Source of the DNA: Schmidtea nova
Lineage: Eukaryota
Direction of reading: 5' to 3'
DNA length: 64,000 nucleotides
Assembly (NCBI GenBank): GCA_044892505.1
Contig: CM097882.1
Span: 495,566,001-495,630,000, forward strand
The position numbers and the translations under genes were made by a program. Position 1 is the first letter of the stretch. Each line of letters starts with the position of its first letter. Of this stretch, positions 23,150-64,000 are shown piece after piece. The notes beneath the pieces were generated by a model. It was not told the origin of the DNA. It was given only the letters and a program-made list of their open reading frames with translations, and did not search any database.

Positions 23150-23874
23150 CAACAATGATTACAAACTAGTACTATTATTTACACTAACAAAAATAATGTG
23201 AATATAAAAACTTGTAATAAATTTATTCATTTGTATTGTGCAACTTGTGTAGTTGTTTTACTTTAATGATGTCATTAAACTTTGATTGTATTTCCGTAGA
23301 ATATATTCTTTATATTTCTTGTAAATGATTATCACTCAATTTTGATCTTAATTTCGACTTATTTATGCTCATAATTGAAAATGTTTTTCGCAAATATATG
23401 TGCTCCTAAATAATGAAAACATTTATTGAGCATGTTTTCGTATTTTCTGATAATTCACGCATGATAATCTTTTATAAAAACAATTAAGATATTGTTCCGA
23501 TAAGAATTCTTAGCGTCGATATTTTCCTGTAATTAAATTAATTCAAACTGTATGTCTTCAGAAACGTCACGCGGATTGCAAGAAAATGGATCTGAAAATA
23601 AAATGTAGTTGTCCGCATGACTCTTAAAATCATCAAAACGTTTGTCAAAATCTTCTAACAAACTCTGTATGATTTTGTTATACTTTTCCGATTGAAGAAT
23701 AACTGATGCCTCGGTATTTTCCTTTACTAATATTCCACATGTTTCAAAATGACAAAATTCACCAATTTGGAACTGTTCTTGTAATAAATGAAATTTTCTT
23801 TCCGTGGAATTTACATACCCAAGAAGATCACAAATAAGCTTACCATTACCTTGCTGTTTTAAATTTAATTCGTT
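23150..23874 (-). pseudogene. C-terminal half of a second SPIN/GTF2IRD2-like hAT transposase (left of the LTR insertion)
   Basis: Reads NELNLKQQGNGKLICDLLGYVNSTERKFHLLQEQ...FDKRFDDFK...FSDPFS, continuing the right-hand half across the TSD; later stops and frameshifts. Confidence 0.85.
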
Positions 23875-24389
23875 TGCTGGGATTATGGGTGGGTTTTTAA
23901 GTAATTCAAATAAATTATTAATTATTAATTGAACGACTATCGATGAGTACGTATACTAGGGATTTCCACGCCCATAACCATACATAACATGACTACTACA
24001 CGCGTATGCCCTTGACTATTCCCTACTAGTCAAGTTGGTACTGCATACGGTGGTGGAAAAATGATGGGCAGGTGAGCTTTGTTACCAAAACTACTCCCCA
24101 TTTATCTTCCCGCGGGTCCTTGCTGCCGATAGAAGGTCTTACGCATTTACATTCTAAGGATGTTCGTTTCTTACTGCATTTTATACTACATATCCTTATG
24201 ATCTATCATACGCTTTTCCCAATGACTTTCCTTAATTGATCTACAATGTAATTAATCAGTCTCGGCGTAGAAATGGTCGGTTTGAGAAAATTACGGATGC
24301 GGTTTTCTATTTCGATGATTTCCGTGTTGTTAATTTAATTTTATTTAGTAACCTCGCCCGATGAGAGACAAAATTCACACACAAATACT

Positions 24390-24395
24390 TTTATT
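24390..24395 (-). terminator. Candidate LTR polyadenylation signal AATAAA (copy at 49393-49398)
   Basis: AATAAA 40 nt after the stop of the 194-aa LTR ORF, followed by a GT-rich tract (gtatttgtgtgtg). Confidence 0.5.
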
Positions 24396-24435
24396 AGAAT
24401 ACTAAAACAGGTTGTTATTTTACATGGATGTTTTC

Positions 24436-25020
24436 CTAAGCGAATTCCAGACTAATCTCCTGGATTAACTCTGCTTCGGTTAAGGAGTTCAAGTGGTGGA
24501 TTTGTTCGTCCAGGCGCTTTGCAAATTCTCGGCGACGACGACGCTGTCGCGATCCCATTCGATGTTTTCGAAGCTGTGGGTTTATGATCGGTGCTGACGC
24601 TATTGTTCTCGGGGAATCACTGAGAAAAACAGGCAAATCTTCCGTTGTAAGAGAGGGGGCCATGATGATTCCCTCTTCCGTCCCGCAAGCGACATCTTGG
24701 TGGGTGCATTGTATCCAGCGCTGAGCCGTGATCGGCCGGATTAGCGCTCGCAATTCGGAGTCGATGTAACTTCTTGTTACTGCGTTCAGGCAATTTCGGA
24801 GTTCTCGCTGGACGGCATCCAGTTCCAATTTGGTTGTAGCCAATGCTTCCTGCACTCGCTCGAGTTTTTTCGACTGGTCCTTCATCTGTTCGGGCGAGAA
24901 CCACTTCGCTTTCAATTCATCATTGGCGACCGTGAGTCGCTTGATCTGTCGCTGCTGGTCCCTCAGCTTTCTCTCTTGAATTTGTCCCATGATTTTCTTC
25001 GAATTTTCTGAAGTCGGCAT
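24436..25020 (-). CDS. LTR-encoded 194-aa protein: coiled coil plus Arg-rich motif (identical copy 49439-50023)
   Basis: GC-rich ATG-initiated ORF inside an AT-rich LTR; heptad N-half; RKHRMGSRQRRRRREFAKR. Confidence 0.65.
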   Translation of the reverse strand: MPTSENSKKIMGQIQERKLRDQQRQIKRLTVANDELKAKWFSPEQMKDQSKKLERVQEALATTKLELDAVQRELRNCLNAVTRSYIDSELRALIRPITAQRWIQCTHQDVACGTEEGIIMAPSLTTEDLPVFLSDSPRTIASAPIINPQLRKHRMGSRQRRRRREFAKRLDEQIHHLNSLTEAELIQEISLEFA

Positions 25021-25338
25021 GTTGTCTGAAGATTATAACGATAAATTCACTGGAGGGCCTATCAACAATGTTATTTTATTTAAACAACTATTATTATTAT
25101 TAAACGAGATGTATACTAATGTTTTTAATTATTGATTTCTTTGCAAAATTATTTAACTATCTAATTATTGAAGGCTCAAAAGATTTACTGAATTAACTTG
25201 AGATTATTAAATGAATTTCCTAATGACTATAACAACTACAATACTAAAACTACATGACAACACTATAAACAAAATGAGACACTTCAGAATTTTTAAAAAA
25301 CATTTATTAAACTCAAAAATAGGTGGCCATTTATTCAA

Positions 25339-25815
25339 TTATCCATCTCCGGTCATTTTTCCCCGATACGAAAATATAGATTTAATTTGCAAATTTGTGT
25401 GGATTCCCATGCTATTGGACGAGGCTTGCTGGAAGCGGATTCTCTCAGCTTCTCGAAGGGGTCGTATGGCTGTATTGAACTTGAACCCCAATTCCTTGAA
25501 GGTAGAGGCTGGAATGAACCCCCAATAAATGACACATCTCGGGAATCCACCTTTGTCCAACATCATGATGAACCAGGCGGCGTGCCATGATTCGAATTCC
25601 TCGTCTGGAATGATTGGCCAACTAGCGCATCCCCGGTACCAGACGTGGTGCCGTGGATGGTCCCATACTGTAAATGGACAGGCGGTTTCGAGCTCTCGGC
25701 GCCATGCCCACATTTTTTGATGGATTTGCTGTAAAATCTCGAAAGGAGCCGGCTTTAATGGGCTAACTCGGGCTCGTTCTTGTCGTTTTTTGATAGTGTA
25801 TCTATGCTTAGTCAT
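25339..25815 (-). CDS. LTR-encoded 158-aa Trp-rich protein of unknown function (copy 50342-50818)
   Basis: GC-rich ATG ORF set off by AT-rich spacers; same strand as all element genes. Confidence 0.5.
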   Translation of the reverse strand: MTKHRYTIKKRQERARVSPLKPAPFEILQQIHQKMWAWRRELETACPFTVWDHPRHHVWYRGCASWPIIPDEEFESWHAAWFIMMLDKGGFPRCVIYWGFIPASTFKELGFKFNTAIRPLREAERIRFQQASSNSMGIHTNLQIKSIFSYRGKMTGDG

Positions 25816-27345
25816 GATTCCAAAACGATGCTAAATTTTATAATAGTTACAATTTACATCAATAATTAATCATAGTAAATGTTATCTCTCATCGTGATAC
25901 CCTTATTATTTGCCTACCCCTTAGACCTTAACTGAAATCAAGGGAAAACTGTCGATCGTTACGGTATGCATTACTCTCGTATCTACTTGGATTTATCTGT
26001 TTACGATCAATTTTATAGTCGAAGAAATGGTGATTTGTCTGCTTGGATTTTCAAAATATTGATACCTCAAAACGGAAGCTCTCTCACGTCATGTATCCCT
26101 AGCTTATTCGAAAACGCTCTTGTGTACCAAATGCGGTCGACATAATTTTTCTAAGGTTTATTAGACGTTTATCAAACAGCTGTGCTGTGGTGAGGGTGAA
26201 AAATTGTGCCTCCTCCCGGTTAACAAATTCTTTCATATCTTTAGGCTTTATCAAAAAATTATCGTCCCCTCTGTAGCTAAAATGATCAGAAATTAATTCC
26301 CCGGATTTGTTGGGTGTCCCATGTGCAAGTCTCAACCACTACTAACAAAATTAAGCTTTACTATTTATTTACTTTACCGTGTGTGGAGCCCTCGAGCACC
26401 ACGCCACGGACGGACACCTTGGGAACCTAAAGCTCCCAACGGCGCAAGATTAATATGATAGTTTAAATAGTTTAAATATAACATAAATCATAATGAGATG
26501 AATAATATATTATAATATGATAATGACATATGAATACAACATCAAACAATGTACCAAAAATACCTCAATTGAATTCTGAAAATTTATTGATCAAAATCGG
26601 TCTAAACGGTGATCGTCGTCGGGGCAATGTGCAATCTAATGTGAATTTTTAGTTAACGTCTAAAATTCAGTCTACTAAAGTCTCACTCTAGTCAAATGTC
26701 TAGTCTACCAAAGTCTGATTTTTTGAAAAATCTGATCAGTATTTATACTGATCAGTCGTGTCTAGACTGACCAATCAGGTTTGGCCAGTTTCAGGGTGGT
26801 TTTTCATTATTGTTCTTGATTCTAATTAATTTTTATTTTTTAGATTGTATTCTTCCTCGGAGGTCCGGTTTTCAAAAACAATTATTCAATAACAAGTACT
26901 TTTATTTGGTTTTAATTATTATTATTTGTATTTTATTTGTTTTTAGATGTCTCCTGGGCCCGTTAATATCTATAAATTCATTTATTTTTATTTATAGCTT
27001 GTACTTAGTTATTCTATATTTTTACTATATTATTCCTTTCTTTTAATAAATAAATATTCCCCTTTTTACCCTATTTTTCTCTTTTTTGTTTTAATTAATC
27101 TACTTTTATTTCACTGTTCCCTCTATTTGGCTGGCCCAACATCACTCGGGGACCCCTAAAATTGCGTCCCGCAATTAATTATACATTTACACCTATATCA
27201 TCATACATAAAAATTAAGCAGATAAATGTCAATTTACATATACACAAAGAATCACGTAAGGTGATAGATTTTATACGTGAGCACAAAGTCATATTATTGT
27301 TAAATGTAAGTGGATCATACATAAAGTGAATGTAATATATCAGTT

Positions 27346-27918
27346 TTACACAAGCTCTTTGATTTCATGATTGGTATTGGATTGGATTGGGGTTCTTTTG
27401 CTGATTGTTCGTAGTTCGTAGTGGCTTTGGATTCGGTTTAGGTGTTTTCTCATTCGCTTTTGGGTTCTGATGTCTTGTATTGTTGTTCGATTCAGGATGA
27501 CATGTTTTTGTTTTAAGATCTTCACTCGGTATGATGTTATGAGGATTGTGATCGCGATAATGGTCACGCTGAGTGCAAGGATTATTATAATTGCGATGAT
27601 CCATTTTTCTTGATATTCTATCTCTGCTTGGGCTAAGCTTTTTATGGGTTCTCGACCTTCTTTTAGGGTTTTTCTGATTGTTTTCAATTTGATTCGATGT
27701 TCATATAGGACCTGTTGAAATTTTTCATCGTTTGGGTTGTCTGATGTTATCTGTTGAAGTTGGGTGATTTCTTGTGTTGCTTCGCTGATTAGTTTATCTA
27801 GTTCTTGATAGGTTTTCTCGGGTAGGGCTCGTAGCTCCTTCTCTGTGAGTTGAAGATCTTCTCTTTGTAGGGTGATTGTTATTAGGTATAGGAATATCGG
27901 TATTCTGAGCTTTTTCAT
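27346..27918 (-). CDS. Accessory 190-aa predicted membrane protein (signal-like N-terminus, coiled coil, TM)
   Basis: MKKLRIPIFLYLITITLQ hydrophobic start; WIIAIIIILALSVTIIAITILITSY TM followed by a basic tail. Confidence 0.75.
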   Translation of the reverse strand: MKKLRIPIFLYLITITLQREDLQLTEKELRALPEKTYQELDKLISEATQEITQLQQITSDNPNDEKFQQVLYEHRIKLKTIRKTLKEGREPIKSLAQAEIEYQEKWIIAIIIILALSVTIIAITILITSYRVKILKQKHVILNRTTIQDIRTQKRMRKHLNRIQSHYELRTISKRTPIQSNTNHEIKELV

Positions 27919-27999
27919 ACTGTTTTCTTTACAGATAGATCAATACAATTTGACACTACATTCATACAATTATTTACAAAAATATATTTTCCGCTTTAT

Positions 28000-29061
28000 T
28001 TACACAATCGTCTCGTTTGGTTCGTAGAAACCTTCGTCCTGAGGCTCTACTTGGTTCGTGGGGAGTGGTATCCAAACAACCCTGCTCCTCCACATTTCGA
28101 CTTCATCTCGATACATGTGAGATATCTGGATCTCCTCGTCCAGCAAATATTCTAGGTAATTTGCTTGTTCTGTTAATGTTTCTATTTGCTTCTCTAATTC
28201 GATTACTTTTGTCTTTTGTTCGTCTTCCTTCATCATTTTTGTTACGGCTGCCGTTATACTTGCTTCTTTGGGTATTACTGATACTGTTACTCGTTTCTGT
28301 TTCAATTCTTCGTTTTCTTTCATCAAATTCGTTAAATTTTCCTCATAACTTTGTTTCTCTTCCTTTAACCTTTCTCTGGTTCTTTTTAGCTCTATTTTCT
28401 TCTGGGTAATCACTCCTTGGTAACCATTTATATCTCTCTTCATCTCTTCTTCTTTCTGATTCCATATTCCGGTGAGCATAGATTTCAGTTGTTCTTGATT
28501 AGCTAGTTCTTCTCCCATTCTTTGAACTTGATAGGTTAGTCCTTTAATTTTCTTTGCTTGTTCGCGGATAAATTGCTGTCTTTTTGTATTCCATCTTTTA
28601 TTTAGCACTTCCTGGTTGATTTTTTGCTCTAATTCGTCTTTTAGTTCATCGATCTCTTTATATAATTTCCAGTCATCACTATAAGCTGTCCTTTCTATTA
28701 TTTCTCTAGCTTTTTCATAAGATTCTTTCGCTTCTTTCTTCCAGTATCTTGCTTGTTCTGTAATCGAATACATCTTGTGTTCAGCTTCCATCTGCTGTCT
28801 GTCTCTTTCCTCTCGTCGCTCTTTCATCATTCTCTGGTAATATTCCTTTTGTTGTTGTAGCATTTTGTATACTTCTTCTACTTTTTCTCGACTTCTTTGA
28901 TTTGATCTTTCAGTTTCTTTTAATAATTCGGCTTGTCTTTCTACCTCTTCTTGCTTTCTATAATATGCATTGACCAATATTTCTATTTGTTCTAGATGAT
29001 CGCTAATCGCTTCTGCTTGATGCGTCGTAATTTCCTGTAAGCATACCTCGATATTTCCCAT
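28000..29061 (-). CDS. Accessory 353-aa long coiled-coil protein
   Basis: E/K/Q/R-rich heptad sequence over nearly the whole length; ATG preceded by TTATAG. Confidence 0.8.
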   Translation of the reverse strand: MGNIEVCLQEITTHQAEAISDHLEQIEILVNAYYRKQEEVERQAELLKETERSNQRSREKVEEVYKMLQQQKEYYQRMMKERREERDRQQMEAEHKMYSITEQARYWKKEAKESYEKAREIIERTAYSDDWKLYKEIDELKDELEQKINQEVLNKRWNTKRQQFIREQAKKIKGLTYQVQRMGEELANQEQLKSMLTGIWNQKEEEMKRDINGYQGVITQKKIELKRTRERLKEEKQSYEENLTNLMKENEELKQKRVTVSVIPKEASITAAVTKMMKEDEQKTKVIELEKQIETLTEQANYLEYLLDEEIQISHMYRDEVEMWRSRVVWIPLPTNQVEPQDEGFYEPNETIV

Positions 29062-29174
29062 TGCTATAATTACAGAAAAAAAATTTTAATCGGTTTATAT
29101 ATCAGTTATTTTTGTTTATATAATAATTTTTGGGTAATTAACTGTACATATTATTTACATGATCACTTTCCTTG

Positions 29175-30557
29175 TTACGTCAACCATCCTTTTCTATCCG
29201 CTTTCTCATTCCTTTCCATTTCTATGTATAGGGTGTCTGCATATAATCGTTCCCATAGGCTTTCTTTCGTTATAAACATCGGTTCTCCCGCTGCTAATCC
29301 ACATTCTGTGGTTGGTTTCTCGCTTGTACTCGCATGTTTCTCTGTCTCAAAGAATTTTTCCACTGGTTTTGTTACACTTCTGATTCTTACAATGACTCCT
29401 ACTTTCAAGGGCCATTCTACTAGGTCGTCGTATTCTCCTTTACATAGCGAGAAAAATATTGACACATGTGTTCCTCGTCCTCTTCCGTCTCCATTTGGGT
29501 ATAGCTTCAATCTCACTTTAGCTCCGTTTCTCCATAAATAAAATGGTGGGCTTATTACTGCTGTTTTCGTCATATTTCTGGCCTCTGTTAATTTGTTTCT
29601 AAAATCTGTCACTTTCCACACATATGGTGCGATTGGTAACTTTTCCTCGGTATCCTGGGTGAGTTTGTTGTACTGGATTTTCATTCCTTTAGCCAGTTCT
29701 TCGATAGCTTTTATCTTTTCCTCCATCTTTTCTCGTGTTAGTTCGAATTGCTCTCTGGTTTCCAACAGTAGGTTTACCATTATCTTGTGTGACTCTATTT
29801 CTCTTTCTAATTTTTTGATTGTTTGTTCGGTTTCCTTTGTTGCTTCGTTTGTCATTTCCGCATGCTTTAGCAATGCTTCCTCCAGATGTTGTTTCATGGT
29901 TTTTTGCGTTCTTTTCTCCATACATCCCTGTTTGTTATAAGGGCATTCCCTTGGTTTCTCCGTGCACACTTTCCAATGTTCTTGTAATTTTACTTCTACC
30001 GTTATCTCGCATTCGTTTGAACATATTCCTACATATTGTCTACATACTTTCTCCTCTTTTATATTCAGGTGTTCTTCTTCGATCTTTCTCCTCGTTTCTC
30101 GAGTTCCACAATATTCGCATAGACTTTCCTCTTCTTTACATTCATCTTTGTGCTGCTCTTTATTCTTTATAGTTATTTTTTGTTGGCATTTGTTACATTC
30201 AGTTCTCTTCTCTTCGCAGTTCTCCAGATGGTTCTCGAGATCGCGTATTTGTCCTTGCCATATACATGGTTGATTTATACATTCGGTTTTCGTGTTCATG
30301 ATTTCTCTCTGAGTTGCTCTATCTGGTCCGGTTTCTTCGAATTTTATTTGTCCTTCTTTGCATTCTGGACATTCTGGTGGTCTTTTCCTACTTAACTCGT
30401 GTATGCATTTGGTACATACTCTGCATCCGCATAAGGTTTGTCTTGGTTTCAATATTATGTTTTTACAATTTACACAAGTGAGTCTCTGACTCCATTTCCT
30501 GTTCTCGGCTCTCAAAATTTCGATTATCCGCTCTTCGGCTTTTCCTTCTGTATTCAT
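29175..30557 (-). CDS. Intronless TRAF2-like protein (RING, TRAF zinc fingers, coiled coil, MATH)
   Basis: RING CVNC..CGCRVC..C..CPEC; DRATQREI; CIWQG; MATH WKVTDF..SPPFY..LYPNGDGRGRGTHVSIFF..WP. Confidence 0.93.
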   Translation of the reverse strand: MNTEGKAEERIIEILRAENRKWSQRLTCVNCKNIILKPRQTLCGCRVCTKCIHELSRKRPPECPECKEGQIKFEETGPDRATQREIMNTKTECINQPCIWQGQIRDLENHLENCEEKRTECNKCQQKITIKNKEQHKDECKEEESLCEYCGTRETRRKIEEEHLNIKEEKVCRQYVGICSNECEITVEVKLQEHWKVCTEKPRECPYNKQGCMEKRTQKTMKQHLEEALLKHAEMTNEATKETEQTIKKLEREIESHKIMVNLLLETREQFELTREKMEEKIKAIEELAKGMKIQYNKLTQDTEEKLPIAPYVWKVTDFRNKLTEARNMTKTAVISPPFYLWRNGAKVRLKLYPNGDGRGRGTHVSIFFSLCKGEYDDLVEWPLKVGVIVRIRSVTKPVEKFFETEKHASTSEKPTTECGLAAGEPMFITKESLWERLYADTLYIEMERNEKADRKGWLT

Positions 30558-30648
30558 TCTACAATGATATATACACTTGATTTGTTATCTATTTTTTGAT
30601 TTTTCTTGTTTTTGTTTTTACATATTTACAATTTTTCGCTTTATTTAT

Positions 30649-31005
30649 CTACGGCTCGTTTGTTGAATCTGGTTCTGGGTCATTTTCCGATCTGTTTATT
30701 GCCCAATTTGTCCATCCATCCTCTGCTTCTTCTGTCTCTCCCATTGTTAAACGGTCTATCTCTATTGCTTGTCTCTGATTTATGTCGCTCATCACTTGAT
30801 TCTCTCTGGTAAGTTGCGTTATCAATCTCTGTTGCTCCTCGATTCTGTGGAGTTGTTCAAAACTATTATTATAACTTTCGGATAACAAATTCTGTTTCTC
30901 AATTAACTGATTTTGTAGTGAGTTGATTGTTCGTATTAACATGTCACACTGGGCTTTCCATCGCATAGCCATAGTAGTTTCTGCTATTTCTTCCTGTTCG
31001 TTCAT
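30649..31005 (-). CDS. Accessory 118-aa coiled-coil protein
   Basis: ATG ORF between the pol stop and TRAF; Q/E-rich heptads. Confidence 0.65.
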   Translation of the reverse strand: MNEQEEIAETTMAMRWKAQCDMLIRTINSLQNQLIEKQNLLSESYNNSFEQLHRIEEQQRLITQLTRENQVMSDINQRQAIEIDRLTMGETEEAEDGWTNWAINRSENDPEPDSTNEP

Positions 31006-31130
31006 TTTCTAAATTATATACATTAATCGTTTTCTCGATTTCTCTTTTTATATTTTTATAATATCGATACCCATACTATTACGGTAATGCATTGTTATTT
31101 ACACTATTATTTACAGTCATATCCCGCCTC

Positions 31131-34100
31131 CTATATCACCATCACTGTCTTTCCTTCGTATCGCTCTTCATCTTCTATTTGTCTCCAAAATTCTTTACCT
31201 TTCGTCCTCCTTTGGAATTCTTTATGTACTTCTTCCGGTAATTCTATACTGTAGTTCATAATCTTTATATCTGGCCAATGTGTTATTGGTTTCTTGTTGA
31301 ATACATCATATATCCATATTATTAATAATACTGTTATTACTGGAATAGTTGCTGCTAGTATTCCTAGACCAATTAGTTCTCTAACTTGTTTGTTTACGTC
31401 CATCTTCGTAATTTCACTCTGGTTAATCATTGGTCCGTATTGTCCCTTTAGTTTATTTAGTAGTTGTTCTCGTTCTTGTTGTTTTCTTTTAACTTCTTTA
31501 ATTACTTCTTCCGGCGTCCATCTTGCGTAAGGGTCTATTACTACTTGTTCCGCGTCCATTTGTTTCGTTGTCTGACTTAATTCTTTAAATTCGAGTTTTC
31601 TCACTTTCCCTTTGGACGTTGAGTTTACCGGTGTGTAGTACGTTTCGCATCTTTCCTGCTGATTTCCCAATATGTCCGTCTTTTCTATCGCACATATCTC
31701 GTATTCGCTATTGAATTTCAGGTTCCTGATACTTATTTCCTCTTTTCCTTTCACGTTTCCACAGTCTCGTGGCTGTCTTTCCCTTTGTTTCTGAACTATT
31801 ACCCAACATATTTCTAACGTTTTATTGTCTATTCTCCATAGTATAAGAGTTGCTGTAGTATTCTTTTCGGTTTTTATTTGTATTTCTTGGTTTTTCTGTT
31901 GTCCATTAGGTTTAAAAGTAGTGGTATACCTCGCTTTTCCTTTGTTCCGTTGTCTTCTGCTTTTTCGCGTTGTCTTTCCAATTCTTGTTCTGGTGGGTGT
32001 TTTATATAATTTGCATTCCAATTCACTTACTGTTATTTTGTCGCTTTTCCTGATCAGGCATATTTCGTACGTTTGATTGCTTTCTAATCCTTCGATCTGT
32101 ATTGTGGTTGTTCCTCTGTTTGTTCGACATTGCGGCGGTGTATTCTGGTTTGTTTTCTTTTCCTGCTTCTTCCAGCATACGCCTTTGACGTCCGGTTCTA
32201 TTCCGGTTAACTCTAACATTATAGTTGTTCTCCGTTTGGTGCGTATATTTTTTCTTCTTCTTCTTATGAACTTTATTGTTTCCCCAGGTTGAAATGTTTT
32301 ACAAATTGTCGTTCCTTTCTTGTGTCTTTCTTTTTCTAGTAAACATAGTTCATACGTCCTGTCTGCTTTTACTTCTGATATCTTGGTTACTTTATTTGTT
32401 TTCCTTTTCCGACTCGTCTTTATTTCGCTTACGCCAATTTCTTCGTTGTTTCTGGCCCAACACTTTGGGTTGGTATTTTGGGTGTCGTTCATCTCTGTTA
32501 CTGCCATTGTGTCAATGTCTATCCCTTCTTCTAACCGTTTTAACATTGTTAATATGAGTGCTAAACACAGTAATTCTGTTTGGTAGGTCACTCTTTCGGT
32601 CTCGTTTGTGGTTACTCTTGCTTCGGGCCTGTCTATGGTAATTCGTATAGTTGGCGTTGTTCGTCTGTCTATTGTCTGGGGTTTCTTGTTTTTTGTTCCT
32701 TGTGTCTCTGTTCTTCCACACTTTCCTACGACATAGTCTCCTTTGGATGACTGCTGTACTGTTATGGTTACTTTGGGCGTTAGGTAGTTTGCACATGCGA
32801 TTGTGTTGTGTGATCTTGGATTCTTTTGTTTTCTGATGGTGCATATTTTGTACCAAGTATCTAGCTCTAAGTCATCGATCTCTATGATTTCTTGTTCGTA
32901 TTCTGAGATCTTGCAATCCATTGGACTATTTTGTCCCGATATTTTGTCCTTTTTTGACCAACATACTCGTTCGATTCCTTTTGCGTTTCCAATTTGTATT
33001 GTCGCTCTTTCCTCACATATCATTCCTTGAGTTGGACTAATTAAGGTCATGATTACCGTTAGTAATAATAGTTCTGGTTTAAAGAATGGGTTTATTGTTT
33101 GTTTGTAGCTTGTTCTTTTTGCTTCGTTTTTATTTTTATAGTTGTTGTTTCTTTGTTTCCCAAATTCATTTTTCTTATCATTTTTCTCTGTGTCCCTTCC
33201 TTTCTCTTCACTGTCCTCTTCATCTGATAACTCATGATCCTCTGGATTTTCTCGAGTACTATCGTCGTCGTTTCCTGTATTGTCGCCTCCCCTTTGGTCG
33301 TTGAAAATGTCGTCCTCGACATTAATTGCTTCTATCATTTTTTCATACGTTATGGTTGTGAGTATACTTGCTTCATATTCTTGTGTTACTGCCTGCTTAG
33401 GTATTTCCTTATCGGTTAATTTACAATCTAGAATCTCTTTCTTGGCTTTTATCCAATTATTAAGGTACGTTTTCATTAGTTCTTTCCATTTGTCCGTACG
33501 TTCTGTTTCCTTTGGGTTGTTTGTGAATCGCAAATCTTTTCTTCTCATGAAGATTTCTATTATCTTTGGCCATTTGTTTATTATTAATGCACACTTTATA
33601 TATAAATTTTGGCCTTGTTCCATGAACTCGTTGATCCTAAATGCTGGTTCATTGGTGTTTGGGTTCATCCAATTGAGTATTGCTTCGGTTAGTTCAGCGT
33701 TATGCATCATGGAATGTACGCTAGCTTTTTTAACTGTCCTTGTAAGGTATTCTATTTCCTCCTGATTTGTGATTGTTTTTATGAAATTTATCACCTCCCA
33801 ATTGTGCGCTAATAACGCTACGTCTAGTATTGAGCTGTCTTTGTTAGTTCTTCCCATGAGTCCTGCACCTGCTTCGTACAGTTCCTGTAACACTCGGGTT
33901 TTTGTGTTCGCTCTTGCTGCAAATATCATGAGGGTATCTCCCTTTTTATCTTTCATGTTCATGTCACTTCCGCAATCTTGCATCAACCGTGCAATTTCGA
34001 CTACCCTCCTCTCTTTTCTTGCTCGTAAGGCTCTATGTATTGGCAATACTCCATTCTTTGTTAATAAGAAAGTCACTGGCATTTCTCTTTTTATGATCAT

Positions 34101-43928: not shown

Positions 43929-44000
43929 GAATTTCCGATAGTGTTTCTTGTCGATGAATTCCTCATTATATATTACTTCTAGTGCGTTATCTAATAATTT

Positions 44001-46514
44001 CTAGATCTCATCCTCTTTTACTTGAATAGTTTCTGGTGTCTTTACTACTTCTATCTTTTTGTCTTCAATTTCCGGTTCGTTTAGCATATCTCCTGCTAGA
44101 CTACTGACGTCACTATCCTCTTCGTCATCTGAAAAATTCTTTGCCTGGCCTCTCAACATGTTAATGTGTTTTATTTGGTTGATTTCACTTGGTGTATTTT
44201 CCGTTGGTCTTGTTTCACTTTTAATATCTTTTTGTGTTGATTCACTCTTGTCGTCTACTACTTCGACCTTTCTCATTTTTCGTTCTAACTCGTCTATTTC
44301 TCCCAACCGTCTTCGTATCATTTTCCCTTTAAATATTCGACTGATTCGTGTTTCGTGACGCACTGGCGATGGAGTTCCTTCTGGTTCTATTTCCTTGATT
44401 ACCATCACATTTCTTTTTGTCTCTACTACTCCCATGTTTTCCCATGTATCCGTTAGTTTCAATTTTACTTCTGGTGCACCTTCTATTTTTAGGAATGCTT
44501 CTCTGGGCAGTTTCGTTACTCCTGGAGCCATTTCATTCACTTTGTTGAATAATGTTCCTACTTCTTCCTTTATGTTATATTGGAATCGAAACATATGACC
44601 GTTTGGCAGGATTACCATCATTCCCTTTTTCCAAATCATTCTTTTCTCTTCCTGGTTTGCCTCTGTTTCCACTTCCTTTTCTATTTCTGTTTCTTCGCTT
44701 CCTGGTACTATTTCTTTTCGACTTTCGTTATTGGTTGGATTCAGGTTTGTTGGATTTATTTCTGGCACAGTCTCTTTCTCGTGGGTATTTGCTTGATTGG
44801 TTGCTCTCATCATATTAATTCTTAGAGGTTGTCGTTCTCTTTCTTGCTGTTTTTGTTCCTCTTCTCTTTGTACTCTTGCCCATTCCTGAGCATGTCGTGC
44901 TTGACTTTCCCGATTCAATTGTTCGTTTTCGCTTTCTATTTTTCTCATCATATTGATTTGTTGTTGACCTGTTTGCGGATTTCCTCTGGTTGTATTGTTT
45001 ATCAGCTCCGTCAATCTTTGAACCTCTTGCATTAAATGTATCTCTTTAGTGGTATTTTTATTTTGGTTATTATTATTACTATTTGGTTGGTTTCCGTATT
45101 CCGGTTGGTTTCCATTATTTGGCTGATTTCCATAATTCTGTCGGTTTCCACCAGTTGGTTGGTTTCCATAGTTTTGTCGGTTTCCGGTATTCTGCCAGTT
45201 TCCTCGTTGATTGCTTCTTTGTCCGCAATTTCTTGATAGGTGTCCAGGTCGTCCACAATTAAAACAGGTTATTGTGTAACATCTGCTCTCTGAATGCCCT
45301 TTTACTCCACATTTTCCACAATTCAAGTTCTGATAACATTCTTGTTGCCAATGTCCCAATTTCCCACATGTTTTGCATTGTTTCGTTGGTCCTTGGGGGT
45401 TGTAATTGCTTTGATTTCCGTAATTTGATACTTTATTCCCTTCATTCCTTCGTTGCGGTGGTGGTCGGTTTAATTGTTGTGAATTTGGAATGTGGTTATT
45501 CAGGTTCACTTCTTGTTCGTTTTGTGCTGTATCCATAGCTAAATAGATTCTACCATCATTTCCTATCATGTGTAGTTCAAATCTATTAGCTGTTTCTAGT
45601 GCTTGGTCGATGGTTTTACACCCTTGACATCCAACTTGCGCTCTTATGTCGGGTCTTCTTAATCCTCCCACAAAGATAGCTGCCATTAACTCCTCATTTA
45701 TTGGGCTGTCTTGATTAAAGATCAACTTTGCTAACTTTTTCAATTCGCTCGCATATACCGCATTCGATTCATTTATCTTTTGTTTCCTCATTGAGAATTC
45801 CGTGAATGCCTCATTCAATACTTTGTTTATTCCGAAGGTTTGTTGGAAGAAGTCCTTTATCGCTGACCAACTTGTAGGTGGATTAATTCCATTTTTTGCT
45901 TCCAAATATAGATCTAATGCGCTATCTTTTAAATATAGCTGAATTCTGCTTACAGTTGTTTCTGGTTTCCACTTGCATACTTCCACGAATATGCCAAATT
46001 CCTTTAAGAAAGTTTCCAGTTTACTCGCATCTCCATTAAACGGTTCTCCGGAAAATTTGTCTTTTATCTCTTCTCTTGGTTCACTCATTTCGATTCCGCT
46101 GTCTGTAGTTATTTTACTTTCGTTTCCTCTTGTTTCTAGTTCACTGTTAGGTTCGTCACTCGAATTTCGGTCGATCTCAGTTTCTTTTGCTGATTCGTTA
46201 TCTGATGCTTTACTATCGTTATCGGTATCGTCACTTTCTGTTTCTTGTTCTACTTCGTCTTCTATTTCTTCTATATAATCGTTGTTGGTTTTGTCGACTT
46301 CTATTTCACTTATTGGGTTTCTCTCGGGTTCTGCTTGATTTTCTTTGTTGCTTGAACTGTTGCTTGTTGCTGATAGTTTATCGTTTTCGATAATCGACTT
46401 TTGTATTATTATCTGCCTTGCTTTACTTCCTTTTAGGCCTTTCTGATTATTATTCTTGGTAGCTTTATTCTTTTCTGCTGGTTTTATTATGACACTCTTT
46501 TCTCCTTTTCTCAA
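44001..46514 (-). CDS. gag: Gag: acidic N-terminal region, Ty3-type capsid, three CCHC knuckles, Q/N-rich repeats, UBL/UBX-like tail
   Basis: PFNGDASKLETFLKEF..LYLKDSALDLY, RKQKINES capsid motifs; CX2CX4HX4C x3 (45220-45380). The track start is TTG. Confidence 0.92.
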   Translation of the reverse strand: MRKGEKSVIIKPAEKNKATKNNNQKGLKGSKARQIIIQKSIIENDKLSATSNSSSNKENQAEPERNPISEIEVDKTNNDYIEEIEDEVEQETESDDTDNDSKASDNESAKETEIDRNSSDEPNSELETRGNESKITTDSGIEMSEPREEIKDKFSGEPFNGDASKLETFLKEFGIFVEVCKWKPETTVSRIQLYLKDSALDLYLEAKNGINPPTSWSAIKDFFQQTFGINKVLNEAFTEFSMRKQKINESNAVYASELKKLAKLIFNQDSPINEELMAAIFVGGLRRPDIRAQVGCQGCKTIDQALETANRFELHMIGNDGRIYLAMDTAQNEQEVNLNNHIPNSQQLNRPPPQRRNEGNKVSNYGNQSNYNPQGPTKQCKTCGKLGHWQQECYQNLNCGKCGVKGHSESRCYTITCFNCGRPGHLSRNCGQRSNQRGNWQNTGNRQNYGNQPTGGNRQNYGNQPNNGNQPEYGNQPNSNNNNQNKNTTKEIHLMQEVQRLTELINNTTRGNPQTGQQQINMMRKIESENEQLNRESQARHAQEWARVQREEEQKQQERERQPLRINMMRATNQANTHEKETVPEINPTNLNPTNNESRKEIVPGSEETEIEKEVETEANQEEKRMIWKKGMMVILPNGHMFRFQYNIKEEVGTLFNKVNEMAPGVTKLPREAFLKIEGAPEVKLKLTDTWENMGVVETKRNVMVIKEIEPEGTPSPVRHETRISRIFKGKMIRRRLGEIDELERKMRKVEVVDDKSESTQKDIKSETRPTENTPSEINQIKHINMLRGQAKNFSDDEEDSDVSSLAGDMLNEPEIEDKKIEVVKTPETIQVKEDEI

Positions 46515-47068
46515 CGGGATTACTTTTGTATACTCAATTTTCCTGTCTTATCGTATTCCGATTCTTTTCTTCCTTGGTTGCTTGGTTTGGTTTGATTGAT
46601 TTATCTAAAATACAAATGTCACTTCAACGATACTCTATTGTTATCGTTGCGCTTTTATTCCCTTTTTACGGGACTTCTCATTACTGGGTTTCTATTATTT
46701 TTCCCCATTCCCAGATTCCCCTTTATTTAAGTCTATTTAAATTATCTATATACTAGTCACAATTATCTATTTAGTCATAACAATTATCTATCGGTTATTA
46801 AAATACATCAATTATTTTTCCCGCGGTCTCCCAATTTATTTGTCGTTCGAACGCTCTAATTCCCTGAGTCATTTGACTCGATTATTATTTTATCATCTCT
46901 TTATCTTTCTCTCTGCTAGCCTCTAATTATTAATTCTGCCGGTCTTTCCGGTCAGCTCTTATTTCTCAATTCTACTTGCATGCATTATTTTAGGTCGCAT
47001 AATCAGCTTTACTCGCATTTCTCAATTCCTGGTGCGCACTATTCTCATTATCGTCGACGATCACAACT

Positions 47069-47587
47069 CTGGGCCTATATTCCCTCTGTTGTTATTTCTT
47101 ATCACTTGCAACCCTGGGCCTATATTCCCTCCGTTGCTACTCAACAATTGTAACCCTGGGCCTATATTCCCTCCGTTACTATATATCCGGATATCCCTAT
47201 TGGCTCCTTTGGCCTCTAATTAATATCAATTATCTCAAATGGCTCTTATGGCCTCAAATTCATATCTCAACTATCTCAAATGGCTCTATTGGCCTTAAAT
47301 TATATCTCAATTATCTCAAATGGCTCTATTGGCCTTAAATCATATCTCAATTATCTCAAATGGCTCTATTGGCCTTAAATCGTATCTCTCAATAACGCCT
47401 AGCTAGGTCATTCAATATGGCTCTTTGGCCTCAACCCTTTGTTTCAAGGGACAACCCGCTGATAACCCTTTGTTTCAAGGGACAAATTCTAATAACCCTT
47501 TGTTTCAAGGGACAAACCGCTGATAACCCTTTGTTTCAAGGGACAAATTCTAATAACCCTTTGTTTCAAGGGACAAACCGCTGATAA
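47069..47587. repeat. Three tandem-repeat blocks in the 5' leader
   Basis: CTGGGCCTATATTCCCTC x3 (47069, 47114, 47156); 40-bp unit x~4 (47221-47388); 30/31-bp unit AACCCTTTGTTTCAAGGGACAA x5 (47433-47587). Confidence 0.93.
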
Positions 47588-48060
47588 CTTTTCCTTAACC
47601 GGTTAATCGTAATTCTTAACTTCGCTAGCGACTACAATTTCTCAGCTGAGTTCTCTCAATTTCATGCGAGCTGATTATGCACCTCTTATTTTTCTCTATA
47701 ATTCCTCGATTCTTTGTTTTATTACTAATTCTTTCGCTGATCAGTCATAATTCAATTTTTATTATTTTCTCTGCGCGCATCTTACCTCATCAGGGTTTTC
47801 CCTATTTCTCTCCCCAACCAAAATATACAAAAAGATCGCGTTGGTCTACTAATGCGGGATGTGGTGATCAATCACATCACAAAAGCTTTCCAACATTTGC
47901 GATTGGCCCCTTTCTATATACCCCGAGTGGGTTGATCAACTGGTACCTCCCAATGGGTGCTTAACGGACTACTTGACAGTAGCTCAAAAATTAATTAACA
48001 TTGTTGATTGCTCCCCTGACTTTGTCATTCGATACAATATATTAACACTCTAAATATTTA

Positions 48061-48522
48061 TTATAAATAAACTACAATTTTATCAGCTACAGAGAAATTG
48101 CACATGGGGCACTCATCACACTTATTCGCACAGTTTTTACAGAATCGAAAATGTCCGCATGGTAGAAACATTATTTGGATTTCACTGTCTTCGCATATGT
48201 AACATTGTTTATATTGTTTTGCTGCCTCGACCCCTTGCGACATCCATCGGTTATATGTTAGACTTAACTGCTGTTCTATATGTCGGCATCTGATATTCAA
48301 CTCGGCATCCTCTAATCGTGCTTTGTACCATTTATATCGCGTATTTATATCGAGTTTATTTACTTTCTCTATGATTTTTATTAACTCAGTTGTTTCCTCA
48401 GTTTGTGTCGTAGGTTCCTCATATTCGGATGCTCTTATTCGGGTTATTTTTTCGCAGACTGTCTCAAATGTATCGTTCTCGGTGTTGAAAAATTCCTCGA
48501 TTTCTTTCAGTTTTTCCTCCAT
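48061..48522 (-). CDS. 153-aa protein with a C-terminal IAP-type RING finger (no BIR)
   Basis: CYICEDSEIQIMFLPCGHFRFCKNCANKCDECPMC..KIVVYL matches the XIAP/cIAP terminal RING pattern. Confidence 0.88.
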   Translation of the reverse strand: MEEKLKEIEEFFNTENDTFETVCEKITRIRASEYEEPTTQTEETTELIKIIEKVNKLDINTRYKWYKARLEDAELNIRCRHIEQQLSLTYNRWMSQGVEAAKQYKQCYICEDSEIQIMFLPCGHFRFCKNCANKCDECPMCNFSVADKIVVYL

Positions 48523-48853
48523 TTCCTAGATAATTTATTTAATTACTGTGTTAATATTATTCGAAAAGTAGTACTGTGTTTCGTTTCTGACAGTTTACAG
48601 CCTCCCCCCGTGTTTCGGTAAATTGTCGTCCCGACCTGTTATTTATGAATGCATTTATTAATTTATCTATTTCATTGTGTTGTTGTTTTTATTTACCCAG
48701 TTTGTTTAATTCTCTGTTTATAACTGTCTATTTCTACGCAACTCGCTTTCGTCTCGATTACTCTTTCGGTTACTATTTCTACTCACAAAATTCTGATTTT
48801 TTAAATTTCTCTGTTGTCATTGGGTTCACCTTTTCCGCATAAAAACAAAGTTG

Positions 48854-48871
48854 ATCCCGGCTGAGCCCCCA
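48854..48871 (-). promoter_or_regulatory. Primer binding site, tRNA-Pro type
   Basis: TGGGGGCTCAGCCGGGAT, 6 nt after the 5' LTR; 16/18 identical to the classical tRNA-Pro PBS TGGGGGCTCGTCCGGGAT. Confidence 0.85.
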
Positions 48872-48877
48872 AATTTA

Positions 48878-51800
48878 TGCTGGGATTATGGGTGGGTTTT
48901 TAAGTAATTCAAATAAATTATTAATTATTAATTGAACGACTATCGATGAGTACGTATACTAGGGATTTCCACGCCCATAACCATACATAACATGACTACT
49001 ACACGCGTATGCCCTTGACTATTCCCTACTAGTCAAGTTGGTACTGCATACGGTGGTGGAAAAATGATGGGCAGGTGAGCTTTGTTACCAAAACTACTCC
49101 CCATTTATCTTCCCGCGGGTCCTTGCTGCCGATAGAAGGTCTTACGCATTTACATTCTAAGGATGTTCGTTTCTTACTGCATTTTATACTACATATCCTT
49201 ATGATCTATCATACGCTTTTCCCAATGACTTTCCTTAATTGATCTACAATGTAATTAATCAGTCTCGGCGTAGAAATGGTCGGTTTGAGAAAATTACGGA
49301 TGCGGTTTTCTATTTCGATGATTTCCGTGTTGTTAATTTAATTTTATTTAGTAACCTCGCCCGATGAGAGACAAAATTCACACACAAATACTTTTATTAG
49401 AATACTAAAACAGGTTGTTATTTTACATGGATGTTTTCCTAAGCGAATTCCAGACTAATCTCCTGGATTAACTCTGCTTCGGTTAAGGAGTTCAAGTGGT
49501 GGATTTGTTCGTCCAGGCGCTTTGCAAATTCTCGGCGACGACGACGCTGTCGCGATCCCATTCGATGTTTTCGAAGCTGTGGGTTTATGATCGGTGCTGA
49601 CGCTATTGTTCTCGGGGAATCACTGAGAAAAACAGGCAAATCTTCCGTTGTAAGAGAGGGGGCCATGATGATTCCCTCTTCCGTCCCGCAAGCGACATCT
49701 TGGTGGGTGCATTGTATCCAGCGCTGAGCCGTGATCGGCCGGATTAGCGCTCGCAATTCGGAGTCGATGTAACTTCTTGTTACTGCGTTCAGGCAATTTC
49801 GGAGTTCTCGCTGGACGGCATCCAGTTCCAATTTGGTTGTAGCCAATGCTTCCTGCACTCGCTCGAGTTTTTTCGACTGGTCCTTCATCTGTTCGGGCGA
49901 GAACCACTTCGCTTTCAATTCATCATTGGCGACCGTGAGTCGCTTGATCTGTCGCTGCTGGTCCCTCAGCTTTCTCTCTTGAATTTGTCCCATGATTTTC
50001 TTCGAATTTTCTGAAGTCGGCATGTTGTCTGAAGATTATAACGATAAATTCACTGGAGGGCCTATCAACAATGTTATTTTATTTAAACAACTATTATTAT
50101 TATTAAACGAGATGTATACTAATGTTTTTAATTATTGATTTCTTTGCAAAATTATTTAACTATCTAATTATTGAAGGCTCAAAAGATTTACTGAATTAAC
50201 TTGAGATTATTAAATGAATTTCCTAATGACTATAACAACTACAATACTAAAACTACATGACAACACTATAAACAAAATCAGACACTTCAGAATTTTTAAA
50301 AAACATTTATTAAACTCAAAAATAGGTGGCCATTTATTCAATTATCCATCTCCGGTCATTTTTCCCCGATACGAAAATATAGATTTAATTTGCAAATTTG
50401 TGTGGATTCCCATGCTATTGGACGAGGCTTGCTGGAAGCGGATTCTCTCAGCTTCTCGAAGGGGTCGTATGGCTGTATTGAACTTGAACCCCAATTCCTT
50501 GAAGGTAGAGGCTGGAATGAACCCCCAATAAATGACACATCTCGGGAATCCACCTTTGTCCAACATCATGATGAACCAGGCGGCGTGCCATGATTCGAAT
50601 TCCTCGTCTGGAATGATTGGCCAACTAGCGCATCCCCGGTACCAGACGTGGTGCCGTGGATGGTCCCATACTGTAAATGGACAGGCGGTTTCGAGCTCTC
50701 GGCGCCATGCCCACATTTTTTGATGGATTTGCTGTAAAATCTCGAAAGGAGCCGGCTTTAATGGGCTAACTCGGGCTCGTTCTTGTCGTTTTTTGATAGT
50801 GTATCTATGCTTAGTCATGATTCCAAAACGATGCTAAATTTTATAATAGTTACAATTTACATCAATAATTAATCATAGTAAATGTTATCTCTCATCGTGA
50901 TACCCTTATTATTTGCCTACCCCTTAGACCTTAACTGAAATCAAGGGAAAACTGTCGATCGTTACGGTATGCATTACTCTCGTATCTACTTGGATTTATC
51001 TGTTTACGATCAATTTTATAGTCGAAGAAATGGTGATTTGTCTGCTTGGATTTTCAAAATATTGATACCTCAAAACGGAAGCTCTCTCACGTCATGTATC
51101 CCTAGCTTATTCGAAAACGCTCTTGTGTACCAAATGCGGTCGACATAATTTTTCTAAGGTTTATTAGACGTTTATCAAACAGCTGTGCTGTGGTGAGGGT
51201 GAAAAATTGTGCCTCCTCCCGGTTAACAAATTCTTTCATATCTTTAGGCTTTATCAAAAAATTATCGTCCCCTCTGTAGCTAAAATGATCAGAAATTAAT
51301 TCCCCGGATTTGTTGGGTGTCCCATGTGCAAGTCTCAACCACTACTAACAAAATTAAGCTTTACTATTTATTTACTTTACCGTGTGTGGAGCCCTCGAGC
51401 ACCACGCCACGGACGGACACCTTGGGAACCTAAAGCTCCCAACGGCGCAAGATTAATATGATAGTTTAAATAGTTTAAATATAACATAAATCATAATGAG
51501 ATGAATAATATATTATAATATGATAATGACATATGAATACAACATCAAACAATGTACCAAAAATACCTCAATTGAATTCTGAAAATTTATTGATCAAAAT
51601 CGGTCTAAACGGTGATCGTCGTCGGGGCAATGTGCAATCTAATGTGAATTTTTAGTTAACGTCTAAAATTCAGTCTACTAAAGTCTCACTCTAGTCAAAT
51701 GTCTAGTCTACCAAAGTCTGATTTTATGAAAAATCTGATCAGTATTTATACTGATCAGTCGTGTCTAGACTGACCAATCAGGTTTGGCCAGTTTCAGGGT

Positions 51801-52144
51801 GGTTTTTCATTATTGTTCTTGATTCTAATTAATTTTTATTTTTTAGATTGTATTCTTCCTCGGAGGTCCGGTTTTCAAAAACAATTATTCAATAACAAGT
51901 ACTTTTATTTGGTTTTAATTATTATTATTTGTATTTTATTTGTTTTTAGATGTCTCCTGGGCCCGTTAATATCTATAAATTCATTTATTTTTATTTATAG
52001 CTTGTACTTAGTTATTCTATATTTTTACTATATTATTCCTTTCTTTTAATAAATAAATATTCCCCTTTTTACCCTATTTTTCTCTTTTTTGTTTTAATTA
52101 ATCTACTTTTATTTCACTGTTCCCTCTATTTGGCTGGCCCAACA
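48878..52144 (-). repeat. 5' LTR (3,267 bp)
   Basis: Direct repeat of 23875-27141; sense strand starts TGTTGGG and ends CCCAGCA; followed by the PBS. Confidence 0.97.
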
Positions 52145-53336
52145 CGTTCATAACACCAATTACGTCTACTAGAAATGTCAAGTCACATTAACAGTTAATA
52201 TCTTGTAATGAAGCAACATCACTATTTTTTTCAGTTAAAAACTCTGTAATTTTTTTCTTAGACTAAAAAACCTTTTCAATGTTTGTCTTCTCGAAAGCCA
52301 TCTTACCTCTTAAAAATATTTAACGTCTCCAAATGGAGATTCAGACTTTTCTAAGAGTTTTAAATTGGTGGTGATTGAGAGCATGCTTTTTGATAAAATT
52401 AACTGTTTTAATATCATCATGTCATTATTCATTTTCAATACCTGAGTTAAAAAATTTTCTTGATGAATAATACAGTGATAATGATGCAATATATTGGTAT
52501 TGTTAGAGTCTTTCAACTTGTTTTTTTAATGTATAAAGCCTTGCTTGTTGCCCATCATAGATGGAGCACCGTCTGTAGTTACTCCTACCAAATTGTCCCA
52601 ATTAATATTGTTCGAATCAAAAGCATGTTTTACAGCGGAAAATATATCACACCCCTTTGTACGGTCTTTTAAACTTTCCAATGGCAATAACTCTTCAACA
52701 ATCATAAAATTTTCAGTAATTCCACTAATAAATATTAACAGTTGTGCCGAATCGCAGATATCGGTACTTTCGTCCAAAGTAATGGAAAAAGCAGTAAACG
52801 ATTTTGAAATTTCTTGTAACTGATGTAAAATATTCTCATCAATATCTTCAATTCTACGAGTAATGGTCATTTTCGAGAAACTAATATCATTGAATAACGA
52901 CTTTTTATCTGGGCACACTATGTCAACAACTTTCAACATACAATTTTAAAAAAAATTCTCCTTCTAAAAATGGTTTACTATGTTTGGCAATTTCTTGCGC
53001 AATAACATAGCTAGCTAAAACGGAGGATTCATTCTGTTTGAAAAGATTTTTAAACACTAATTTTTGACCATTAAAAGATTTTTGTAGGGATACATATTTT
53101 ATTTGTCTTTCATTACCAGTAATACCATTATAATTACTGTGATGCGTATCGTAGTGTCGTTTTATATTGTATTCTTTAAAAACAGACACATTTTGTTGGC
53201 ATATAAGACACATAATTTGATTTTTTTGTTCAATTACAAAATATAAAATACCCATTTTTCGTGAAATTTTCGTTTCTCTTGTGTTATTTTGCGCTTTTTT
53301 GAATTTTTTATCTTCCATTTTTAATTTATAGTTCAT
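52145..53336 (-). pseudogene. N-terminal half of the interrupted hAT transposase
   Basis: CLICQQNVSVFKEYNIKRHYDTHH, ITLDESTD, VTTDGAPSM, HCIIHQ, VRWLSR, DLTFLVDVIGVMN; frameshifts and stops present. Confidence 0.9.
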
Positions 53337-63999: not shown

Positions 64000-64000
64000 A

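Follow-up and report, generated by a model that had tools for sequence, protein, structure and literature searches.

The closest described systems are the giant Gypsy retroelements of planarians known as Burro, whose first open reading frame (ORF), ORF1, is a single frame that holds env between gag and pol and carries the same cargo domains as the element considered below; a 5,140-aa version is reported from 'Dugesia tigrina' (PMC6431247). Burro1 is expressed upon PIWI loss and Burro is silenced by PIWI in somatic cells (PMC8532177), and the inhibitor-of-apoptosis (IAP)-like cargo of Burro1 is said, second-hand, to protect stem cells (PMC13465017). A further described group comprises GAG-ENV-POL elements with an envelope of the glycoprotein B (gB) type of herpes simplex virus (HSV), found in flatworms, nematodes and bryozoans and including six Schmidtea mediterranea elements; the furin site is not always conserved in these envelopes (PMC13524379). 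Here we analyse a 64,000-nt stretch of the Schmidtea nova genome (assembly GCA_044892505.1, contig CM097882.1, forward-strand positions 495,566,001 to 495,630,000; hereafter the window), whose minus strand carries a 28,270-bp Gypsy element of this kind. Because size, envelope, cargo and activity are already published for Burro or planarian elements, none of these is new.

Our reading of the sequence, to which we assign a probability of roughly 0.6, is that an AUU-started polyprotein would thread the endoplasmic reticulum (ER) membrane and release both a class III fusogen and a fast-changing protein like fibronectin type III (FN3) that is likely used for attachment. In the literature searched, with the main Burro descriptions lying outside it, we found no report of a second glycoprotein or FN3 module in such elements, of a non-AUG start in them, or of selected accessory genes that include two in the long terminal repeat (LTR), nor of a two-part entry design in any reverse-transcribing virus.

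A young copy of a Burro-type family with a single polyprotein

The element runs from 52144 to 23875 and is bounded as follows (window positions throughout):

48878..52144, minus strand: 5' LTR, 3,267 bp, TG...CA, from LTR comparison
23875..27141, minus strand: 3' LTR, 2 substitutions relative to the 5' LTR, from LTR comparison
23871..23874, unstranded, second copy at 52145-52148: 4-bp target-site duplication, likewise in 20/20 other delimited copies
48854..48871, minus strand: primer-binding site, complementary to the 3' end of host tRNA-Pro(TGG), 6 nt past the LTR
27142..27161, minus strand: conserved stretch at the polypurine-tract position, not purine-pure, identical in 20/20 delimited copies

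The two LTRs are 99.94% identical, in agreement with the value of about 99.9% given in the first-pass annotation. Our copy sample consists of 24 other copies from the top of 40 scored matches among 469 candidates, and it favours close relatives because it was drawn from top-scoring matches. Both LTRs could be delimited in 20 of the 24; the LTR pairs share 99.2% identity or more, 10 of them without a single difference, and every copy has its 4-bp duplication. The family, for which a genome-wide pattern search returned 84 matches, was thus inserted very recently, and the earlier description stands in so far as it speaks of a giant, Burro-like Gypsy element that is very young and has an envelope and many accessory genes. 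Two sampled copies are irregular (c01/c05): one is without about 7 kb of the internal region, and the other has both LTRs shortened to 1,748 bp and is without LTR ORF A, its LTRs still matching and its target duplication present.

The six-base spacer between LTR end and primer-binding site (window 48872-48877) is identical in 20/20 delimited copies and is longer than usual. Host tRNA-Pro(TGG) arrays bear a 3' end that matches the primer-binding site. Such tandem arrays lie near 459.6 Mb of contig 1 with a period of 308 bp (1,106 pattern matches genome-wide), and at that locus ARAGORN called four of five genes as Pro and one as Ile.

Within this frame of LTRs, target-site duplication and tRNA primer site, Pol has the Gypsy order of protease, reverse transcriptase (RT), RNase H and integrase. 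The family also has the traits of Burro: a length of 28.3 kb, 3.3-kb LTRs, 84 matches, a frame of about 5,000 codons with env, and ankyrin, MATH, TRAF and RING cargo. Candidate Bcl-2-like and ubiquitin-like domains, at the places expected for Burro, are matched weakly here and more strongly in relatives. In an RT tree of 14 rows, built without named references, this family joins a sister family and a third one (hereafter the 476 family) with 100/100 support, the deeper forks remaining open. We conclude that the element is a young, stop-damaged copy of a Burro-type Gypsy family and not Burro1 itself. Its polyprotein, with the parts in order of translation, is laid out as follows:

46089..46547, minus strand: AUG-free in-frame gag extension, 153 codons, with a candidate AUU start at 46536-46538
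44004..46088, minus strand: Gag and linker, with a capsid-like domain and three CCHC knuckles by eye, two of them scored by Pfam
44001..44003, minus strand: premature stop private to this copy (1/84 genomic pattern matches)
43029..43331, minus strand: ubiquitin-like domain, weak (PF18036, E 0.044)
41109..41591, minus strand: Bcl-2-like domain, weak (PF00452, E 0.15)
41040..41111, minus strand: internal signal-like stretch 1, predicted by hydropathy, at the same place in 9/9 public relatives
39369..41051, minus strand: Env ectodomain with a class III fusion fold, gB/chuvirus-like (PF24664, E 5.4e-68)
39282..39365, minus strand: Env transmembrane helix, predicted by hydropathy
35439..38714, minus strand: protease, RT (YIDD), RNase H and integrase with GPY motif, in Gypsy order
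33579..35081, minus strand: ankyrin-repeat region (PF12796, E 1e-12)
33009..33086, minus strand: internal signal-like stretch 2, predicted by hydropathy
31629..33020, minus strand: second ectodomain with four FN3-like repeats and paired cysteines, from structure and profile searches
32529-32582, minus strand: short hydrophobic stretch between repeats 1 and 2, from the sequence
31131..31379, minus strand: predicted second transmembrane helix (31293-31379, hydropathy), short tail and natural stop

Gag of this copy ends at the stop at 44001-44003, which is in frame with 4,289 more codons and could therefore suggest that gag and pol are separate frames bridged by programmed stop-codon read-through, as the first-pass annotation had proposed while taking every ORF to be intact. 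Both ideas fail on the comparison of copies. The stop occurs in this copy alone among the 84 pattern matches and in none of 29 other top copies, the RNA downstream of it is no more structured than shuffled sequence (z 0.08), the reading frame continues through this position in the sister and distant families, and published Burro ORF1 is likewise one frame (PMC6431247). Counted from the gag AUG, the polyprotein is open for at least 4,900 codons in 14 of 24 other copies, and the commonest stop-to-stop frame, 5,140 codons, is listed in 24 of the 84 family rows. As the stop is found in a single copy, it is a lesion, and read-through is refuted as a mechanism of the family. This copy has 51 private sites, the stop among them, and about 7 of these are expected to postdate the insertion. 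Because it is private and the other copies are open, the family encodes one polyprotein of about 5,140 codons; the present copy is broken and could produce the Gag part, not Env or Pol. A 40-codon synonymous scan against two relatives for a recoding or extra-Gag signal gave lower rates in parts of the 5' third and no sharp dip. Before read-through is called from a single copy, a stop that separates gag from pol thus needs to be compared with other copies.

Upstream of Env, the ubiquitin-like domain is matched in the public relatives P0002 and P0006 (the public relatives being 9 polyproteins retrieved through Env). The Bcl-2-like domain ends about 45 residues ahead of signal 1; against PDB, 12/12 of its matches are Bcl-xL at an E of about 1, and relative P0007 reaches E 0.0015. 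A model of Env built from 12 sequences has a mean predicted local distance difference test score (pLDDT) of 67. In a Foldseek search of PDB all listed rows are herpesvirus gB (best E 6e-12, TM about 0.3), and among viral models the best matches are chu-like virus glycoproteins (E 4e-29); a PDB sequence search with Env gave no match. Since the model matches both gB and chu-like glycoproteins, Env is class III by its modelled fold. The parts typical of gB-type envelopes are predicted here, namely a signal, a class III ectodomain and a transmembrane helix, and the ectodomain contains a single glycosylation sequon and no furin-type site. Env is strongly conserved, with 3 non-synonymous and 84 synonymous shared variants across 25 copies (ratio of non-synonymous to synonymous rates, dN/dS, 0.01), and Pol has 19 and 146.

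Comparison with the described systems places the element close to both. With Burro1/GYPSM1 and the 'Dugesia tigrina' element it shares the nature of a giant planarian Gypsy, the frame order Gag, env, Pol and ankyrins, with the weakly matched ubiquitin-like and Bcl-2-like domains between Gag and env, and the RING and MATH cargo (PMC6431247). The commonest frame here has the ORF1 length of the D. tigrina element, which also has a separate MATH ORF (PMC6431247); as the two were compared by description only and differ in knuckle count and in the side on which the MATH ORF lies, the match in length is a lead and not an identity. TRAF lies downstream of the polyprotein here and upstream according to the Burro review, and the three knuckles seen by eye compare with two in D. 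tigrina and three in Burro1 (PMC6431247). Burro1 has a BIR domain, and it has MATH inside ORF1, whereas here none of 9 proteins has a BIR match and MATH is in a separate downstream ORF. No dUTPase-like domain, which in Burro lies between protease and RT, was matched by Pfam here, and the review found dUTPase by HHpred (PMC6431247). In its section on these elements the review ties env to gypsy Env, whereas the modelled fold here is class III, and it mentions neither a membrane or FN3 module at the C-terminus nor genes in the LTR nor a start at a codon other than AUG (PMC6431247). The gB-type elements have env before pol, as does the present one, and its Env is by eye nearest to their entries 5 and 6; they span 14.5-18 kb, and the main text of that paper never uses the words 'polyprotein', 'fibronectin', 'fused', 'accessory' or 'Burro' (PMC13524379). 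The first-pass suggestion that the envelope was undescribed thus does not hold, given the published Burro env (PMC6431247) and planarian gB-type env (PMC13524379); its three predicted membrane proteins are recovered by hydropathy as Env, the C-terminal module and a 190-aa ORF.

A predicted FN3-like membrane module

Between the second signal-like stretch and the second helix lies a C-terminal domain of 550 residues, with four repeats of about 80 residues that each have an invariant Cys-Trp and two more cysteines. Language-model features score FN3 at 0.88 on the module, which is a lead only. Foldseek returned 8 matches at E up to 0.001, with titles naming fibronectin fragments, anosmin-1 and a cytokine-receptor complex, and a wide structural search gave a best Z of 7.9. 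A search with the repeat profile matched 115 proteins, and Pfam fn3 is present in 10 of 12 that were checked; because many of the matched proteins look bacterial, they say nothing on the origin of the module. The four methods point to FN3, none of them at high confidence. No homologue of the module was found among the long proteins searched (2,345-7,464 aa). A second surface protein, FN3-like and at the end of the polyprotein, may be undescribed, as may the likely non-AUG start considered below.

The two ectodomains differ in character. The second one has seven glycosylation sequons, compared to one in Env, and its shared variants in the 25 copies are 52 non-synonymous and 41 synonymous (dN/dS 0.33, compared to 0.01 for Env; Fisher p 7e-16), so that the module is constrained, but far freer than Env. 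Positive selection on the module was considered and rejected: no repeat attains a dN/dS of 1 among shared variants, and a singleton ratio of 0.71 was discounted, falling to 0.30 after better alignments.

A signal-like stretch and a helix after integrase recur in five other families of the genome and in 7 of the 9 public relatives. The layout is present in 4/4 copies of two distant families that are only 36% identical over Env and Pol, as well as in the 476 family, with the same gene order and proteins 53-76% identical, and the sister family has the signal-FN3-helix module twice in tandem within one frame (L139:6057-9980). An independent case of a second membrane protein is provided by the right end of the window, where 60328-64000 (minus strand) holds the 3' part of a different Gypsy element with integrase, a signal-like stretch, one FN3-like repeat, a stalk, a helix and more ORFs.

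Two env-bearing families (L141-L156) have single frames of 3,401 and 3,393 codons, a length of about 15-17 kb and LTRs near 860 bp; their membrane layout is the same, and their conserved N-terminus lacks an AUG. A 483-codon ORF that follows the polyprotein of the 3,401-codon family (L143:1186-2637) looks by eye like a DEDDh exonuclease and has no Pfam match at E 0.001.

The AUG-free extension and the accessory genes

The frame of gag continues upstream of its first AUG. In 22 of 25 copies this extension is uninterrupted over its 153 codons, 5 copies have in-frame length changes, and its shared variants are 3 non-synonymous and 12 synonymous. The 516 nt ahead of the gag AUG contain no AUG in any frame (shuffle mean 4.6; none of 2,000 shuffles was AUG-free), and polyprotein stretches of equal length contain 7-18. 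The extension has no in-frame stop either, as in 0/2,000 shuffles, and the other two frames have 14 and 17. Close to the beginning of the extension lies an ATT codon in strong start context (purine at -3, G at +4), both here and in 8/8 copies from four other families, in which 553-768 AUG-free bases precede the first AUG; it is kept in all 100 of the matches listed, out of 135. This sequence pattern suggests that translation likely starts at the AUU upstream of the first AUG, with leaky scanning. The glyco-Gag of murine leukaemia virus is a CUG-started extension of Gag, and the arrangement here is alike in being an in-frame non-AUG extension upstream of the gag AUG; it differs from glyco-Gag in its candidate codon, AUU, and in an extension that passes from basic to acidic and lacks a membrane stretch. 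Further upstream, the leader contains two conspicuous features:

46605..46616, minus strand: conserved splice-acceptor-like motif of putative function, 57 nt ahead of the extension, in 27/27 copies including the sister family
47064..47588, minus strand: three tandem-repeat arrays with periods of 31/61, 40 and 42

Folding beyond that of shuffled sequence is seen in the 42-nt array (z -3.6) but not in the other two (-0.65 and -1.0), and a search for an internal ribosome entry site (IRES) or known RNA family in the leader gave no Rfam match at E up to 1. Of the structured leader repeats noted at first pass, the repeats are real and structure is confined to one array of three.

Seven distinct accessory genes, five internal and two in each LTR, correspond to the roughly eight counted before:

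50342..50818, minus strand, second copy at 25339-25815: LTR ORF A, 158 aa, no known family, no Pfam match
49439..50023, minus strand, second copy at 24436-25020: LTR ORF B, 194 aa, no known family, no Pfam match
48061..48522, minus strand: RING-finger ORF, 153 aa (PF13920, E 8.6e-12), no BIR match
30649..31005, minus strand: 118-aa ORF, no confident family (ORF list, Pfam)
29175..30557, minus strand: intronless TRAF-like ORF, 460 aa, RING-like by eye, with TRAF zinc fingers and MATH (PF22486, E 5e-21)
28000..29061, minus strand: 353-aa ORF, coiled-coil-like by eye (ORF list)
27346..27918, minus strand: 190-aa single-pass membrane ORF by hydropathy, its signal-like N-terminus clearer in relatives

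These ORFs are open in 22-24 of the 24-25 copies that cover them, and all seven have a dN/dS below 1, with shared ratios of 0.09-0.14 except for the 190-aa ORF: 0.10 for LTR ORF A (13 non-synonymous, 35 synonymous), 0.14 for LTR ORF B, 0.12 for the RING ORF, 0.09 for the TRAF-like ORF and 0.12 for the 353-aa ORF. The 190-aa ORF reaches 0.40 (7/5) among copies of the family and 0.24 in comparison with the sister family; ratios near 0.4 are weak alone because non-coding controls give a shared-variant ratio of 0.47. Against the sister family the accessory ratios are 0.05-0.24 where computable, and the LTR of that family encodes homologues of LTR ORFs A and B that are 32% and 36% identical. The genes of the element are under purifying selection. 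In the LTR stretch examined in the 476 family no ORF of the size of the LTR ORFs was found, and no strong splice acceptor ahead of the 3' ORFs passed the filter.

A dense MATH-domain cluster at about 405-455 Mb of contig 2 is likely a host TRAF expansion, and many of the remaining top MATH matches belong to another Burro-like family, as dispersed TRAF frames of 476 codons. The idea that Burro cargo accounts for the whole TRAF expansion of planarians is unsupported, as most of the best MATH matches lie in that one 50-Mb region; lower-ranked matches are mostly the dispersed 476-codon frames, two of which were shown to lie inside the Burro-like family.

Elsewhere in the window, a tandem duplication with 850- and 1,870-bp units, 95-99% identical, lies just beyond the 3' LTR (17597-22076). 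Remnants of hAT/SPIN-like DNA transposons occupy 13610-15423 (minus strand), with Pfam matches, and 52526-53354 (minus strand), the latter adjoining the 5' end of the element. An RT-bearing ORF (PF00078, E 3e-6) lies at 863-2260 (minus strand), and a 754-codon frame without Pfam match at 3544-5808 (minus strand).

A possible two-part entry route

In order to rationalise the layout, we propose that ribosomes would scan the AUG-free leader and either begin at the AUU or pass it and begin at the AUG, so that Gag would have two alternative N-termini. Signal 1 would open translocation, its remnant anchoring the Gag-ubiquitin-like-Bcl-2 part much like a Bcl-2 tail anchor, and the Env helix would halt transfer, so that Pol and the ankyrin region would be cytosolic as the tail of Env. 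Signal 2 would then direct the FN3 module to the lumen, with the last helix as its anchor. Signal peptidase and the element's protease would separate the parts, and particles would bud with both surface proteins, of which the fusogen would merge membranes and the FN3 protein would likely bind target cells. The RING, Bcl-2-like, TRAF-like and ankyrin cargo may damp cell death and immune signalling. More tentatively, Burro-clade elements at large might be infectious endogenous viruses that obtain a two-part entry apparatus, in which a class III fusogen is paired with a hypervariable FN3 protein for attachment, from one AUU-initiated multi-pass Gag-Env-Pol-FN3 polyprotein, a generalisation that we consider possible at best. 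Herpesvirus gB works with separate receptor-binding glycoproteins, and flaviviruses and alphaviruses make multi-pass polyproteins whose internal signals are cut by signal peptidase. The comparison is an analogy only: a conserved fusogen with a variable partner is alike, but here, unlike in these viruses, replication enzymes stand between two surface proteins in one chain.

Several observations weigh against this proposal. The topology is predicted from hydropathy alone, and that of the module is uncertain because of the hydrophobic stretch at 32529-32582 between repeats 1 and 2, which is followed by Lys-Arg, is kept in relatives and could stop transfer, leaving repeats 2-4 cytosolic. The FN3 model is poor (mean pLDDT 40.6), its Z of 7.9 may reflect merely a common fold, and Pfam and PDB sequence searches with the module gave nothing. 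In distant relatives the second modules escape the repeat profile (best E 0.17; probabilities of 2.6% and 5.5% in hhalign), so their FN3 nature relies on a motif of FN3 type, chosen post hoc and present in 8 of 9 distant modules, and on an Atlas lead of 0.86. The dN/dS of the module is not clearly different from that of the ankyrin region (p 0.056), and being below 1 it fits relaxed constraint as well as an arms race. A single frame would yield Gag, Env and Pol at 1:1:1, with no extra-Gag signal in the synonymous scan. As for the start codon, the shuffle test alone is not significant for the two families whose extensions are short, an ATA in similar context comes earlier in one family, the dN/dS of the extension against the sister family is 0.44, and the DNA of the sister family matches exactly over the 40 nt around the AUU, so that the codon could instead reflect an RNA or splice signal.

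This last point, together with the conserved acceptor-like motif 57 nt upstream, would suit an extension that is reached by splicing from an upstream AUG or held open by an RNA element. We regard that as improbable, since an in-frame stop separates the acceptor from the extension and their distance, 57 nt here, is 61 nt in the sister family, 4 nt more, so that the acceptor cannot feed the extension frame; moreover, none of the three frames has an AUG, as leaky scanning needs, and the ATT context recurs where neighbouring codons differ. The function of the second membrane protein can also be read in another way, as a host-surface decoy, adhesion or interference protein akin to other host-modulating Burro cargo and not an entry factor. 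Class III fusogens of rhabdoviruses and baculoviruses work alone, the number of repeats varies from one repeat to a tandem duplication of the module, two of the nine public relatives show no such module, and other Burro cargo affects host cell survival according to a second-hand report (PMC13465017). However, the module stays in frame with Env and Pol across families that differ in their other cargo, for which a structural part is a better fit than optional cargo, and the two relatives without it may be incomplete, one of them having neither RT nor integrase; we find a decoy conceivable, if doubtful. Finally, there might be no free particles, with Env and the FN3 protein moving capsids only via cell-to-cell contact or local fusion among stem cells. 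The Env ectodomain with its one sequon and no furin-type site would agree with such contact spread, as would equimolar Gag and Env, which is unusual for budding particles. Yet the strong constraint on Env is compatible with either route and the furin site is not always conserved in gB-type env (PMC13524379), and we judge spread by contact alone to be unlikely.

Burro is abundant in planarian genomes and is reported, second-hand, to aid stem-cell survival (PMC13465017). If an AUU-started polyprotein does release two surface proteins, the variable one, in frame with a constrained fusogen, would be the part most likely to set cell tropism and might serve as an antibody or RNA interference (RNAi) target for following spread, and the shared AUU start, if true, would amount to a recoding trait common to an entire clade of retroelements.

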